Of a stretch of DNA of 63,625 bases, positions 49,511-54,528 are shown piece by piece. A model generated the notes under the pieces. That model worked only from the letters and a program-made list of their open reading frames with translations. It was not told where the DNA came from and made no database searches. The number at the start of each line of letters is the position of its first letter. Within the stretch, counting starts at the first letter, position 1. This DNA is from Candidatus Saccharimonadota bacterium (GTDB lineage Bacteria; Patescibacteriota; Saccharimonadia; Saccharimonadales; Saccharimonadaceae), in contig RZZT01000001.1 of NCBI GenBank assembly GCA_010014525.1, positions 1 through 63,625 on the forward strand. The letters are read 5' to 3'. Both the position numbers and the translations under genes were made by a program.

Positions 49511-49896
49511 GGGGCTGATTTAGCTTTAGACAAAAGGATTTTAACATATTATCTGGCAAGTCGATTACTTCGTACAGTATATTTTAAATGCAAAAGAAAA
49601 TTTTGTAGCAAAAGTAAAGGGTATGTTTACTCCAGCTTTTGCGCCAATCGCTGCTTAATTATTCAGCGATCATCAGATTAAACTAGGCAACGTAAGTTTA
49701 ACTGGTGTTATATTTTACCGTTGATCGTTTGTCCGCGGTTTCTAATTCCGTGGATAAATTAAACTTTTAATTAGGACTCGGGTCTTTTTTTGTTTATCCT
49801 TTTTATAGACCTTGAGTAATTTAAGGATACACTAAGCTTGTAGATGGATAATAAGTTACCTTTTGGACCCGAGGGCAGTTCTCGGCAGCTCCACCA
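49511..49896 (+). ncRNA. ssrA: tmRNA
   Basis: 5' GGGGCTG pairs with 3' CAGCTCC-ACCA (G3:U); tag ORF 49590-49658 AKENFVAKVKGMFTPAFAPIAA*. Confidence 0.93.
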
Positions 49897-49976
49897 AATT
49901 TGAGATTATTATAAGGCCTAGTTGCACAACTAGGCCTTATTTTATTGCGTAGTAAATGTGAAAAATACAACAAAAT

Positions 49977-50011
49977 AAAAAATGAGCGACTGCGAGGAAC
50001 GCTCATTTTTT
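49977..50011. terminator. Bidirectional terminator
   Basis: AAAAAATGAGCG...CGCTCATTTTTT. Confidence 0.8.
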
Positions 50012-50132
50012 ACAGAATTGTGGAGTTATATTAGTTTTCTACGTAGAACATCTGCGGTTTATTCTATGCAGGTAATATATAATTTTTGTTTTTGGGGTTT
50101 GGGCTTATGAATAAGTTTTTTGTTCACAAGCT
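49977..50132 (-). ncRNA. Candidate small RNA
   Basis: Bounded by a minus-strand consensus promoter and a terminator; 5' hairpin; no convincing ORF. Confidence 0.5.
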
Positions 50133-50138
50133 ACCCCT

Positions 50139-50167
50139 ATAATAGCGTGTTATTATGCTAATGTCAA
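50139..50167 (-). promoter_or_regulatory. sigma70 promoter (leftward)
   Basis: Reverse strand TTGACA-17 nt-TATTAT. Confidence 0.75.
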
Positions 50168-50275
50168 GCCTTTTATGTTGTTTTTTGAACAACTTTTTTA
50201 AACAATATTTCTTTGTGTTTGTGGAAACTCTCGCGGCTTATGCAGTATGGAAAACAGGCAAGTGGGGCTAGGGTA

Positions 50276-50304
50276 TTGACAAAGTATTATGTTTATGATA
50301 GTAT
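50276..50304 (+). promoter_or_regulatory. sigma70 promoter (rightward)
   Basis: TTGACA-17 nt-TAGTAT with TG extended -10. Confidence 0.8.
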
Positions 50305-50310
50305 GTAAGT

Positions 50311-50724
50311 AGCTTTTACAAAAAACAAAAATAAAAGCAAACACAAAAAAGTACTAGCACATTACATAAATAAAATAGCACCTTTTACAATTAATGAGAA
50401 TTATTGAAGCTTGACTTTGTCCGTTATTCGCGGAGCCTGAATGGTGATTTAAAATCTTATAAGGTTTATGAGAATGTCTTTCGATTCCTAACTTATTCGT
50501 TTTTTTGAATTACCAAAAAGCTCCGCCAGTATTAAAGCGTAGAGCGCGAGGATAAGTACTCATACTATTTACTCGCATAAATAGTATTTGATGGAACCCC
50601 TCAAGGACATATGCCCCCTTACAAAGGGAGCGGTCAAACTAGCCTAAAAGGGCAGACTTCGGACCACGACTAATAGTTATATTATCGCGTCGTATGGAAT
50701 TTTCGATTTGTTTGTCCTTTGGGC
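50311..50724 (+). ncRNA. Candidate large structured non-coding RNA of unknown family
   Basis: Strong promoter, no ORF of 60 aa or more, multiple GC-rich helices and a loop-loop pairing in an AT-rich background. Confidence 0.65.
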
Positions 50725-50752
50725 TGAATCTAATATATGATATATTATAGAT

Positions 50753-51118
50753 ATGCTTAAAAAAATTATTTTCTCGTTAATGACTGTCTCCGTGATTGGC
50801 TTAGGCTTATTACTTAATTTGACATCACCTTCAAATATCGGCCCGATGGGTATATTGGCGTTCTTCGTGCTGCTGTACCTAATTTTTCTCGGGCTCTTTT
50901 CTTTTTTTCTGCATATTATAGGCAGAATTTCGGCTGGTTTTTTGAAGAGACCATTGAGGTTTATAGATTTTAAACGTAGCTACTACTATGCTACGGTTTT
51001 AGCTTTTGCCCCAATTATCCTGATTGCCCAGCAGTCTATTGGGAGGGTTGGTTTTTTTGAATTTATTTTAGTCATAGTTTTTGAGATAATTGCGTGTATT
51101 TACATTTCAAAACGCTAA
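50753..51118 (+). CDS. Hypothetical membrane protein (4 TM)
   Basis: Four hydrophobic segments; leaderless-type promoter. Confidence 0.8.
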   Translation: MLKKIIFSLMTVSVIGLGLLLNLTSPSNIGPMGILAFFVLLYLIFLGLFSFFLHIIGRISAGFLKRPLRFIDFKRSYYYATVLAFAPIILIAQQSIGRVGFFEFILVIVFEIIACIYISKR

Positions 51119-51139: not shown

Positions 51140-51568
51140 ATGGAACCCCAGCTTGAAAATAGGTTACCTGAAGTTAAGATTGAGTCTCAAAAAACTGTTG
51201 AGACTGGTTTTGAAACTCTCCATAATCCTGATCAGATAAGTGGTGCAAGGTCCTTAGACGCCGAAAAGTCATTTAATGAAGCTGTATTTGCAAGCGAACA
51301 ATTGAGGAATGAGGCAGAAGCGGTGGCGCCGCTGGCGACTTCGCCGATAGTAAATAGCCAGTCTAATACTCCGGCCGATGGCGTGAATGTAATCGCTGCG
51401 CCGCAGGTAGCCCAAGATGGTGATTTAATGGAAAAAGAATGGTTGGACAAGCTAAAAAAAATGGTTAAAGAAACCCACGATCCATATTTGAAGCAGAAAT
51501 ATTTCAGAGATATACAGATGGACTATATGAAAAAGCGCTATGGTCGAATTCTGGGTGGGGGCAAATAA
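51140..51568 (+). CDS. Hypothetical protein
   Basis: Disordered N-terminus and conserved-looking C-terminus (DLMEKEW...DPY...YMKKRYG); stop overlaps next start. Confidence 0.8.
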   Translation: MEPQLENRLPEVKIESQKTVETGFETLHNPDQISGARSLDAEKSFNEAVFASEQLRNEAEAVAPLATSPIVNSQSNTPADGVNVIAAPQVAQDGDLMEKEWLDKLKKMVKETHDPYLKQKYFRDIQMDYMKKRYGRILGGGK

Positions 51569-54528
51569 TGAGTGTTTGGGCAGCATTATTCGTACTCGTG
51601 GTTTTGATTCCTGTGGTATCTTTTTTGTTTATAGATCAGTATAAAAATACCATTCGCGAAACCAAAAATTATGAACGTGGCCTAAAGATGGTACCGATGA
51701 AAATCCATTTGCCCCCGCCGAGCGATGATATTGAAGGCGGTTCTAGGGATGAGCGAGACGTGGTAGACGAAGCTTTATCTCAGGCCCAAACTATGTACAA
51801 TATTATATACAGTACTGCCACAAAAGGTTTTAAGACTAAATTATACGGGCAAAGGCATATTTCATTTGAAATTGTAGCTAGCGATGGCCTGATTCATTAC
51901 TACGCAGTTGTGCCGGCAGTAATTACGGAGACCGTAAAGCAAGCGATAGAAGCAGCTTATCCAGCGGCGCGTCTTGAAGAGATCGAGATGAAGAATATTT
52001 TCAGTCAACAAGGTGGTAGCCACGGCGTGATTGGTGGAGAATTCACTTTAAAGAAAGATTATATTTACCCAATTTCGACTTATGAAGACAGTAAACGTGA
52101 TGCTTCGCGGGCTCTCTTAGATGCGCTATCGCGCGCCTCCCGTGGTGATGGTATGGCGGTTCAATTTATGTTTCGCCCAGCTAGTGAAGATTGGACACAA
52201 AAGTCTATTCAAAAAGTTGATGCTATGCGTAAAAATAAAAAGACTGACGGCACGGTGGCCTTAGACATTATGGAGGCTTTATGGAAGCCGCCCCAAGAAA
52301 GACCAAAAGATAAACCCGAATTTAAAAATCTAACATCCCTAGAAGAGTCTGAGATTGAGGCTATTGAGCGCAAAATTAGGTACCCCGGATACGAAACCTT
52401 GGTCCGCGTTGCAATATCCTCTAGCACCTCTTCTAGAAGTCAGGCTCTATTGCAGAGCGTTATAGCCGCTTTTTCGATGTTTGATTCCCCCACGTATAAC
52501 GGTTTTAAATTTAATATGACTAATAATATTGACGATTTGGTGACATCGTATATTTTTAGGTTTTTCCCGCAGAATTTTAAAAGTAATATTTTGAATAGTG
52601 TGGAGCTTTCGACTATGTTTCATTTACCCAGCCGGACATCTATTCCTACCGAAAAAGTCCAGCGACAGAGGATAAAACAAGTTGATGGTCCCACAGAGTT
52701 GATGGACGAGGGGTTATTGCTTGGCGTAAATGAGTTCCGCGGTGTAAAAAAACAGATTAGGCTGGGAGAGAATGACAGGCGTCGGCATGTGTATATCATT
52801 GGCCAAACTGGTATGGGTAAGTCTAAGCTACTTGAGAATTTAGCTTATCAGGATATTATGGACGGTCGGGGCTTCGCATTTATTGATCCGCACGGCGATT
52901 CGGCTGAAGAGCTGATTGGTATGATACCCAAAGAGAGGATCGACGATGTCATTTATTTTAATCCTAGCGATATTAAAAATCCAATCGGTTTTAACATGTT
53001 TGAGGCCACAACGCCCGAAGAAATGGATTTCGTTATTTCTGAAACTAACTCGATGCTCAAGTCCCTGTATGATCCGGGGAACACTGGTATTGTTGGTCCG
53101 CGCATGGAAAATATCGTGCGTAATGCAGCTATACTTTTGATGAGTGACCCCGATGGTGGTACTTTTATGGATATTCCCAAGGTTTTGGTTGACGCTGAGT
53201 TCGCCAAGTCCAAGATTAAATATCTAAAAAATCAGCGCGCGATAGATTTTTGGACTAAAGAATGGCCAGCCTCACAGCGATCTAACGATGCTGGAGAAGT
53301 CGTAAGCTGGGTTGTCTCGAAATGGGCGCCGTTTGAGAGCGGCTTAATCAATAATATCTTAGGACAGAAAACTAGCGGTTTTAATATTCGTGAAGTTATG
53401 GATGGGCAAAAGATTCTGATAGTTAACCTATCTAAAGGTTTGATGGGCGAGCAGGCTGCCAAGCTCTTAGGCATGGTGTTTGTGATGAAATTTCAAGCCG
53501 CGGCTATGAGCCGGGCAGACACTCCGGAAAGCGAGCGTAAGGATTTTTGTTTATACGTTGACGAGTTCCAGAACTTTGCTACCAACAGTTTTGAATCTAT
53601 TCTCAGCGAGGCTAGGAAATATCGCCTTAATCTGATTTTAGCGAATCAGTTTATGACGCAGCTAACGGATACTATCAAGAGCGCTATTACTGGAAACGTG
53701 CCAACCAAGATTGTAGGGCGTATTGGTATAGATGACGCTGAGAATCTACAGCGAGCATTTACTCCAACTTTTACGGCAGAAGATCTAACCAAACTACCGA
53801 ATTATAATGCAGTAGCCACTATTCTAGTTGGCGGCATACCCTCGGCGCCGTTTACGATGGCTTTGCTCCCCCCGATAGGGCGCTCGAACCAGCAGCTTAG
53901 AGACGCGCTGAAGAGATATTCTTCATCTAAATATGGTCGCCCGAAGGCGATCGTAGAGGCGGAACTCAAAGAGCGCTTGCGAGTGAAAACGGCTCTTTCA
54001 GCTTCTCCTCCCGCTTCTGGAGTGTCTAGCGAACAGGGGGGTCAACCTGCGTCGACAATTAATGAACAAATATCCGCGCTTAATAGCCGGCCCTTAGAAA
54101 ATACAGCCCCCCAGTCTCGATCTATACAGCCGCAAACGCCTAAATCCTCTGGGGCGGGCAATCAGTCTATCGATCGGCCGTCGTTTATTGGTCAAAACCC
54201 AGCCCTAGGTGGGTCGCAAGGTCCTGCTAATGTGCAGTCACCCCAGAATAACGTAATAAAATCACCTCCGCAGTCTGTAGATGATAGTTTTCTTGATGGC
54301 TGGTTGAGGAAAAGGGAAGAACTACGCGAACAAGAGGCGCGGGCGACTACAGCCACAAAAACCTCAACTCCAGAAGTAATAAACAGGCAGACTAAAAGTG
54401 CTTCGCCCGCGAGGTCTGAACCTTTCCGGGCTCAAACTCCACTGACACCAAAGTCTAACGATAACTCGGGTAGATTCGATGTTAATAGCCGTGATAACTC
54501 AGAAGAAGTTATCTTTAAAATTCGGTAA
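51568..54528 (+). CDS. VirD4/TraD (type IV coupling protein)-like or HerA-like ATPase
   Basis: N-terminal TM, RRRHVYIIGQTGMGKS (Walker A), IDPHGD, LYVDEFQNF (Walker B), SEARKY, ANQ; low-complexity tail. Confidence 0.85.
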   Translation: MSVWAALFVLVVLIPVVSFLFIDQYKNTIRETKNYERGLKMVPMKIHLPPPSDDIEGGSRDERDVVDEALSQAQTMYNIIYSTATKGFKTKLYGQRHISFEIVASDGLIHYYAVVPAVITETVKQAIEAAYPAARLEEIEMKNIFSQQGGSHGVIGGEFTLKKDYIYPISTYEDSKRDASRALLDALSRASRGDGMAVQFMFRPASEDWTQKSIQKVDAMRKNKKTDGTVALDIMEALWKPPQERPKDKPEFKNLTSLEESEIEAIERKIRYPGYETLVRVAISSSTSSRSQALLQSVIAAFSMFDSPTYNGFKFNMTNNIDDLVTSYIFRFFPQNFKSNILNSVELSTMFHLPSRTSIPTEKVQRQRIKQVDGPTELMDEGLLLGVNEFRGVKKQIRLGENDRRRHVYIIGQTGMGKSKLLENLAYQDIMDGRGFAFIDPHGDSAEELIGMIPKERIDDVIYFNPSDIKNPIGFNMFEATTPEEMDFVISETNSMLKSLYDPGNTGIVGPRMENIVRNAAILLMSDPDGGTFMDIPKVLVDAEFAKSKIKYLKNQRAIDFWTKEWPASQRSNDAGEVVSWVVSKWAPFESGLINNILGQKTSGFNIREVMDGQKILIVNLSKGLMGEQAAKLLGMVFVMKFQAAAMSRADTPESERKDFCLYVDEFQNFATNSFESILSEARKYRLNLILANQFMTQLTDTIKSAITGNVPTKIVGRIGIDDAENLQRAFTPTFTAEDLTKLPNYNAVATILVGGIPSAPFTMALLPPIGRSNQQLRDALKRYSSSKYGRPKAIVEAELKERLRVKTALSASPPASGVSSEQGGQPASTINEQISALNSRPLENTAPQSRSIQPQTPKSSGAGNQSIDRPSFIGQNPALGGSQGPANVQSPQNNVIKSPPQSVDDSFLDGWLRKREELREQEARATTATKTSTPEVINRQTKSASPARSEPFRAQTPLTPKSNDNSGRFDVNSRDNSEEVIFKIR

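Follow-up and report, generated by a model that had tools for sequence, protein, structure and literature searches.

An uncatalogued two-module RNA conserved among Patescibacteria, with a long variant in a Saccharimonadales genome

The window analysed here, a stretch of 63,625 nucleotides from Candidatus Saccharimonadota bacterium (GenBank assembly GCA_010014525.1, contig RZZT01000001.1), contains an RNA element, designated RNA-A, which we regard with high confidence as a real conserved noncoding RNA. An earlier sequence-only reading of this DNA had proposed a stable large RNA of an unrecognised family, and this is borne out in part: the element matches no Rfam family, it has relatives in other genomes, and their alignments contain base pairs in which both sides have changed. 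Judging from the comparison of homologous loci, the window copy is a derived long variant of a two-module family, in which the fixed modules are an A-rich tract (AAAACAAAA) and a 3' bulged hairpin with an AU-rich loop. What is new is the RNA family and its architecture, not a mechanism.

RNA-A belongs to no catalogued family and is present in single copy across many ultra-small parasitic Patescibacteria. Since a single-copy RNA is kept in genomes of 0.6-1 Mb that lack SRP, Rho and Hfq, its retention points to a core job. A 2022 TM7x paper (10.1101/2022.03.25.485537) notes that small RNAs of TM7x had until then not been validated, and a 2024 review (PMC11665869) describes the control of the switch between attached and swarmer cells as unknown and expects translation control to matter. 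We found no description of RNA-A in the literature; a term search in the main text of two large screens (PMC8040213; 10.64898/2026.09.22.753630) returned no mention of these bacteria, and the supplements of both could list the motif. The locus is directly testable, as S. epibionticum is transformable and has published Tn-seq reads (PRJNA957798, given in PMC10633639), a gap of 778 nt ahead of SEML1_0140 and syntenic downstream genes that are essential or nearly so.

The RNA-A gene, its folding and its expression

The features of the locus are as follows, in window coordinates.

49511..49896, plus strand: tmRNA, the upstream neighbour (Rfam RF00023, 87.5 bits)
49972..50134, minus strand: RNA-B, a candidate small RNA with a promoter at 50167-50139, an A-rich tract and a terminator hairpin with an invariant loop
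50276..50304, plus strand: sigma-70-type promoter of RNA-A (TTGACA, 17 nt, extended -10)
50310..50726, plus strand: RNA-A noncoding RNA gene, about 420 nt with predicted ends, from folding, genus matches, alignment and RNA-seq contigs
50312..50338, plus strand: 5' hairpin of RNA-A, conserved module 1, with the A-rich tract AAAAACAAAAA (50321-50331) in its loop and five consensus pairs
50430..50526, plus strand: long arm of RNA-A (GGAGC/GCUCC) including the 13-bp helix, a family-specific domain
50548..50602, plus strand: GAGG/CCUC helix, AGUAC/GGAA internal loop and variable hairpin, a family-specific domain
50606..50636, plus strand: hairpin HP2, with a near-invariant GCGGUCA at its end, kept across the order
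50641..50725, plus strand: 3' hairpin HP3, conserved module 2, extended here; short stem, 2-nt bulge and AU-rich loop with AUAGU
50738..50746, plus strand: extended -10 element, 6 nt ahead of the next start codon, from the sequence and the genus alignment
50753..51118, plus strand: 121-aa four-helix membrane (4-TM) protein of no known family, the most frequent downstream neighbour
51140..51568, plus strand: 142-aa unknown protein, adjoining RNA-A in this order only
51568..54528, plus strand: VirD4/TraG-like coupling-type ATPase, 986 aa (Pfam PF12696, PF02534, PF10412), a neighbour in this order only

The tmRNA was found by Rfam and missed by ARAGORN. All motifs named in the sequence-only reading lie where it placed them, including the promoter (TTGACA at 50276, TG-n-TAGTAT at 50299), which has a counterpart at all 19 genus loci compared and also in most homologues of the class. 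The absence of a coding frame was likewise confirmed, in that no ORF of at least 50 aa overlaps 50345-50752; the ORFs within RNA-A are 20-34 aa long, and one 48-aa reverse ORF reaches its 5' end. The folding z-score is -4.7 on the plus and -3.0 on the minus strand, and none of 100 shuffled sequences folded equally well. The window is contig C28 of the genome G000 (693 kb, 98% complete); a scan of genome contigs gave a single locus.

A DNA search matched RNA-A in 33 of 34 genomes of the same genus and in none of 26 more distant genomes; its motifs recur at 25 of the 26 metagenome loci that were usable. From the 31 genus copies extracted, 18 were picked for diversity (alignment A1), for which RNAalifold gives a consensus of 80 pairs; in 32 of these both partners have changed. 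Several helices proposed earlier are retained in A1: GCGGAGC/GCTCCGC is paired in 79% of cells, the 13-bp helix in 85% (double changes in 4/13 pairs), the ATACTATTTA hairpin in 74% (7/10), CCCTT/AAGGG in 86% (3/5) and ACGAC/GTCGT in 90% (3/5). The kissing loop or pseudoknot suggested between CTCGC and GCGAG did not survive: it is paired in 12% of cells, CTCGC occupies a loop in only 1 of the 18 copies, and GAGG pairs with CCTC instead (90%, double changes in 3/4 pairs). Similarly, the multibranch closure AAGGACA/TGTCCTT is paired in 53%, and the same strand pairs rather with AAGGGCAGAC (180/180 cells, double changes in 4 of 10 pairs); the lower stem of HP3 is paired in 180/180 cells of A1. GGTC/GACC is retained within the genus (90% paired) but shows no double changes, and GACC was not seen in other genera. 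The boxA-like word claimed near the 5' end occurs within two mismatches in only 3/18 genus copies, although a looser form is found in 8/20 family loci; NusB is present. We take the AGUAC/GGAA internal loop to be loop-E-like.

In the window's genus RNA-A has no U-run terminator and is followed instead by the conserved extended -10 at 50738..50746, which is likely to be a separate leaderless promoter. 

Contigs from RNA-seq were inspected in two runs, X17 and X18, which come from two studies, were picked by this stretch and consist of assembled contigs without strand. In the 18 kb examined for X17 there are four contigs, namely the infC region, tmRNA and two on RNA-A (50459-50643 and 50645-50845), the latter extending 92 nt into the next gene. 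X18 covers RNase P, tmRNA and RNA-A (50452-50737), along with some short stretches of mRNA. These data give weak to moderate support that RNA-A is transcribed; contigs in X17 and X12 continue into the next gene. Since silent stretches are covered in X12, X16, X14 and X15, these runs contain DNA. Coverage in X17 and X18 starts after the first 140 nt of RNA-A, an absence that is uninformative. RNA-A is probably an independent transcript.

Range of the family and its conserved core

With the 4-TM protein for an anchor (found in 25 of 201 genomes from the order), a much shorter element was located at the corresponding position in other families. It consists of a promoter, an A-rich tract, a hairpin with GCGGUCA at its end, and a 3' hairpin. 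The latter has a 2-nt bulge, an AU-rich loop of 15-19 nt and a stem conserved in sequence. A model, R1, built from 14 short copies with none from the window's family, matches 46 of 150 genomes of the class, always with one copy each: every one of the 25 genomes from other families of the order, all of them outside the training set, 4 of 37 genomes of the window's own family, and 17 of 87 from other orders of the class. Across 24 of the new R1 matches, aligned with plain MAFFT, the 3' hairpin is 95.8% paired with 8 of 14 pairs double-changed, compared with 34-46% for slid controls; a shuffle test on this alignment is inflated by related sequences. A set of 10 genomes that R1 had missed, or whose 4-TM gene was looked up separately, gave four further divergent copies adjoining that gene, three of them with E <= 0.002 and one weak.

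The refined model R2, whose training alignment contained one spurious antisense row (L141), was run on 141 genomes from beyond the class. It matches 16, of which 13 had not been seen by the model before, and does not detect the element in the other 125. Twelve of these 13 new copies also bear the A-rich tract, which is no part of the model. The predicted lengths of the homologues range from 131 to 485 nt with a replaceable middle, so that the conserved core amounts to about 100 nt plus the A-rich tract and most of the 410 nt in the window is lineage-specific.

The window copy itself is scored poorly by both models (E 0.27 and 0.13, second in the window). Because of this, its membership of the family is argued from synteny and graded intermediates: the same-family loci L131, L133 and L044 score 60, 57 and 27 bits and bridge the long and short forms.

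Rfam 15 at the gathering threshold has no match to the element in the window or in 29 homologue loci, and the looser scans of the homologues (10 loci at E <= 5, 19 at E <= 3) return only tmRNA neighbours and chance rows. Phage copies gave no matches, and none of 21 pattern loci passes the model. A loose phylum-wide pattern occurs in 128 of 401 cases with a similar control background and hence is not counted; a different pattern misses the window's own genus (0/13) and was used only for fetching family loci.

Neighbouring genes and the explanations tied to them

The three downstream genes follow RNA-A in 20/20 loci. The earlier suggestion of a link to the coupling-type ATPase holds within the order, where the 142-aa and ATPase genes lie downstream in 24 of 26 loci within 1.5 kb, and fails beyond it: the two genes are neighbours in this order only, and in other orders and classes pheS or dksA/traR is found downstream. 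The 4-TM gene is linked to the RNA more widely, with breaks in several lineages. It lies behind the RNA at 41 of the 47 homologous loci and in 2 of the 13 new copies from other classes. Other orders show the arrangement RNA, 4-TM gene, then pheS; in several other classes a dksA/traR-type gene with lspA or rluA is near, and the 4-TM gene is elsewhere; yjbQ-family/dksA/lspA is among the neighbour sets. The dksA/traR-type gene lies within about 1 kb in eight other-class loci and is confirmed by Pfam for three of them.

Neither Pfam nor NCBIfam has a family for the 4-TM protein; its model with four helices is confident, and fold searches return only generic helical bundles (best Z 9.2). It is widespread in Patescibacteria, usually ahead of pheS, and its look-alike Atlas clusters are mostly from CPR. 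At L210 the core lies about 550 nt upstream of the 4-TM gene. A weak core match at L201 191-247 (E 1.5) has a methyltransferase gene (Pfam) between core and 4-TM gene.

It is conceivable, though in our estimate improbable, that RNA-A forms a membrane ribonucleoprotein like OLE, binding the 4-TM protein and working at the membrane, joined in this order by the coupling-type ATPase. The frequent adjacency of RNA and 4-TM gene described above favours this, as does the apparent restriction of both to this bacterial group. Table S1 of PMC10633639 lists the S. epibionticum genes SEML1_0140, SEML1_0141 and SEML1_0142, equated with the three downstream genes by order, strand and size rather than by sequence, as growth-defect, essential and essential, and OLE RNA with its membrane protein OapA (PMC12286853) would be the precedent. 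PMC12102498 calls the coupling-protein homologue of that S. epibionticum strain not essential, which may mean another gene. Against a membrane particle, the RNA and the 4-TM gene are on different contigs in G490, G511 and G551, and the 4-TM protein has no family match of the OapA type in Pfam or NCBIfam. Moreover, pheS is the steadier neighbour of the 4-TM gene (9/9 loci outside the order with downstream sequence, plus L207), and the adjacency of RNA and 4-TM gene may therefore be passive synteny.

We give the same low probability to a cis-acting leader or attenuator, in which the 3' hairpin or a terminator behind it would halt transcription unless an upstream switch is thrown. RNA-A is on the same strand directly upstream of the operon in nearly all copies, a terminator or U-run stands at the 3' end of homologues (a separate terminator follows the core in 29/47), and the contigs mentioned above cross from RNA-A into the next gene. 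In the window's family GCUCCGC can pair either upstream or with a downstream GCG..GAGC, both states being 79-100% paired in the genus (window 50520-50547). Such a mechanism is difficult to reconcile with downstream genes that share no function (ATPase, pheS, dksA, unrelated), with the conserved extended -10 just ahead of the next start codon, with the shortest copies (about 130-150 nt), which leave no room for a sensor domain, and with an alternative pairing found in one family only. A -10-like word precedes the next gene in 25/47 of the wider homologues. The alternative pairing of GCUCCGC may be a two-state switch; its sequence is nearly invariant.

RNA-A does not resemble a type III toxin-antitoxin or retron RNA, in that its alignments contain no tandem repeats and its neighbours are the 4-TM, ATPase, pheS and dksA genes.

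Proposed role and comparison with known systems

Because the two modules are kept phylum-wide while the middle is swapped and the neighbours change, RNA-A is best viewed as a trans-acting RNA with two recognition sites. The tract resembles A-rich leaders, and an anti-Shine-Dalgarno-like loop is frequent outside the order; on these grounds we rank first, tentatively, a decoy or scaffold RNA whose protein partner would be a factor with affinity for A-rich leaders, possibly damping translation initiation. The observations beneath this reading are conservation, covarying helices, single copy, changing neighbours and the two fixed modules. RNA-A would be transcribed alone from its own sigma-70 promoter; the A-rich tract and the 3' bulged hairpin, joined by lineage-specific domains, would serve as two protein-recognition sites, a proposal drawn from the pattern of sequence conservation; and the RNA would soak up a factor that binds A-rich mRNA leaders, so that translation initiation is damped. 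The partner might be S1, KhpA/B or an RRM protein, and the effect on translation might differ, for example, between host-attached and free cells. Ordered by the probability that we assign, the decoy is followed by the membrane particle and the attenuator, which stand level, then by a polymerase decoy, and last by a base-pairing regulator.

Of 65 homologues, 42 have the tract AAAA[C/T]AAAA upstream of the core; the corresponding figures are 8 for the antisense strand and 3.7 for shuffled sequences. The strict form is missing in 23/65, and a looser form is present in 56/64. In G000, 7 of 51 occurrences of AAAACAAAA stand just ahead of a first ATG, compared with 2 of 46 for AAAAGAAAA and 11 of 116 for AAAATAAAA; the enrichment in leaders is small. 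Four of the seven other AAAAACAAAAA sites in G000 occur shortly before an ATG, and several tract hits in the 5' region overlap -10 boxes. In L233 (G000:C17), a 36-aa ORF at 159-269 has a consensus promoter and a AAAAACAAAAA leader, and directly downstream (438-845) is the gene of an RRM-domain protein, a candidate binder of the tract. KhpA/B-type proteins are present in 5/5 genomes and an RRM protein in G000, whereas Hfq (PF17209) was found in 0/5 and Rho was not found in 5/5. SRP RNA (RF01854) was not detected in the one genome searched, and Ffh/FtsY (PF00448) has no match in G000 (0/1, 98% complete) and none over the cut-off in a set of five genomes.

The C-rich loops invite a different explanation, namely a base-pairing regulator. 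RsaE/RoxS-like RNAs pair with Shine-Dalgarno sites through a C-rich loop, and RNA-A might likewise cover such sites, the loop having moved to RNA-B in this order; we consider this the least probable of the readings. An exposed C-rich, anti-Shine-Dalgarno-like loop is present in the 5' domain of 5/8 other-order and 5/16 other-class copies, i.e. 10 of 24 copies outside the order (L148, L149, L177, L219, L220, L223, L228, L141, L147 and L208), and RNA-B combines an invariant UUC(C)UCGCAG loop with the same A-rich tract as RNA-A. In this order, however, RNA-A lacks the loop: it is exposed in none of 15 copies of the window's family, and the count of 2/38 in the order falls short of the 5.2 that shuffled sequences would give for any occurrence. 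An RsaE/RoxS-type family calls for the exposed loop in all members, and the RNA-A family has it in only part of them. Furthermore, neither 16S, tmRNA and RNase P nor the 23S fragment contains a conserved complement, with only scattered 9-13-nt matches, and the RNA-B loop is not the exact 16S tail. L145-L147 bear ACCUCCU, as in the 16S tail.

RNA-B, 163 nt long in the window and about 75-85 nt in other families (folding z -5.9), is a candidate for a second uncatalogued small RNA. Its short form was found in 15 loci of other genera and families, one from the unpublished genome G069, and its exact pattern in 7 of 81 genomes of the order, G069 included. At 29 of 30 genus loci the predicted starts of RNA-A and RNA-B are separated by 157-175 nt, usually by 167-168, and this near-fixed spacing of divergent promoters (window 50134-50310) suggests coupled regulation. 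RNA-B has no RNA-seq coverage in X17/X18, which is uninformative. A kissing interaction between the two RNAs was considered and rejected, as the RNA-B loop is invariant while its partner in RNA-A changes in step with the strand it pairs with inside RNA-A. An interaction of GCGGUCA with 23S rRNA was also discarded, since the genus 23S differs at that site; the 23S rRNA fragment on G000:C44, which had fitted GCGGUCA, does not agree with the 23S sequence of the genus and is possibly a contaminant.

A polymerase-binding RNA similar to Ms1 or 6S, whose AU-rich 3' hairpin loop would mimic an open promoter, is another alternative, which we judge quite unlikely, only a little above base pairing. The strong consensus promoter, the single copy and the 15-19-nt AU-rich loop on a sequence-conserved stem are compatible with it, as are the dksA/traR-type genes near eight other-class loci and the lack of a detectable 6S in G000. 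RNA-A, however, has no 6S match (RF00013, in the window and homologue loci), and its consensus fold does not take the form of a rod whose two ends pair. Identity with 6S was rejected because G475, G511 and G551 have a 6S match on other contigs, over the cut-off in G475 and below it in G511 and G551 (E 2e-8 and 9e-7). In a sample of Patescibacteria, 6S-like RNAs (L211-L216) occur in 15 of 121 genomes and in 0/7 of this order. Pairing of the two ends through the A-tract was also rejected: of 64 3' tails, 9 contain TTTTGTT, and the A and C versions are seen in 13 and 7, so that there is no excess.

A broader proposal, to which we attach a low probability, is that RNA-A serves Patescibacteria as a housekeeping RNA no less basic to them than tmRNA or RNase P. 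It would act as an essential ribonucleoprotein that stands in for the lost SRP or switches between the attached and free state, engaging the translation machinery or a membrane 4-TM/ATPase complex, and would be paired with the C-rich-loop RNA-B in this order. RNA-A itself, as the sequence-only reading had held, is not SRP, 6S, tmRNA or RNase P RNA.

Several known systems can be set beside the decoy or scaffold that we prefer. The OLE and oapA genes are adjacent. In PMC12286853, OLE is a large noncoding RNA tied to the small membrane protein OapA, and RNA-A adjoins a 4-TM gene; RNA-A differs in having no OLE match in Rfam (window and 29 homologue loci), a neighbouring protein without known family and an adjacency that breaks in other lineages. 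The raiA motif RNA, as described in PMC10861870, is an orphan structured chromosomal noncoding RNA of similar size range, with fixed neighbours and trans action, and RNA-A is like it in these respects, its trans action being likely; RNA-A has no Rfam match, occurs in another phylum with other neighbours, conserves about 100 nt and has no supported pseudoknot.

T-box leaders share with RNA-A kin a position ahead of pheS in some lineages, where pheS stands only behind the 4-TM gene, an end in a terminator and the loop-E-like motif of the window family. They differ in that the neighbours of RNA-A are often not tRNA synthetases, and it has neither a T-box match in Rfam nor a visible antiterminator bulge. 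Ms1-type RNAs bind polymerase. RNA-A has in common with the 6S (RF00013) and Ms1 types a single copy, a length of about 150-400 nt, a strong promoter and an AU-rich unpaired region; unlike 6S, it is not a rod with paired ends, and a 6S-like RNA occupies another locus in three genomes. RNAs of the CrcZ/CsrB type are protein sponges. RNA-A is set apart from CrcZ by the lack of an Rfam match and of Hfq in the five genomes, and from the type as a whole by one or two copies of the motif rather than many and by an extra conserved 3' hairpin; the likeness lies in an exposed A-rich motif resembling mRNA leaders, which RNA-B carries as well.
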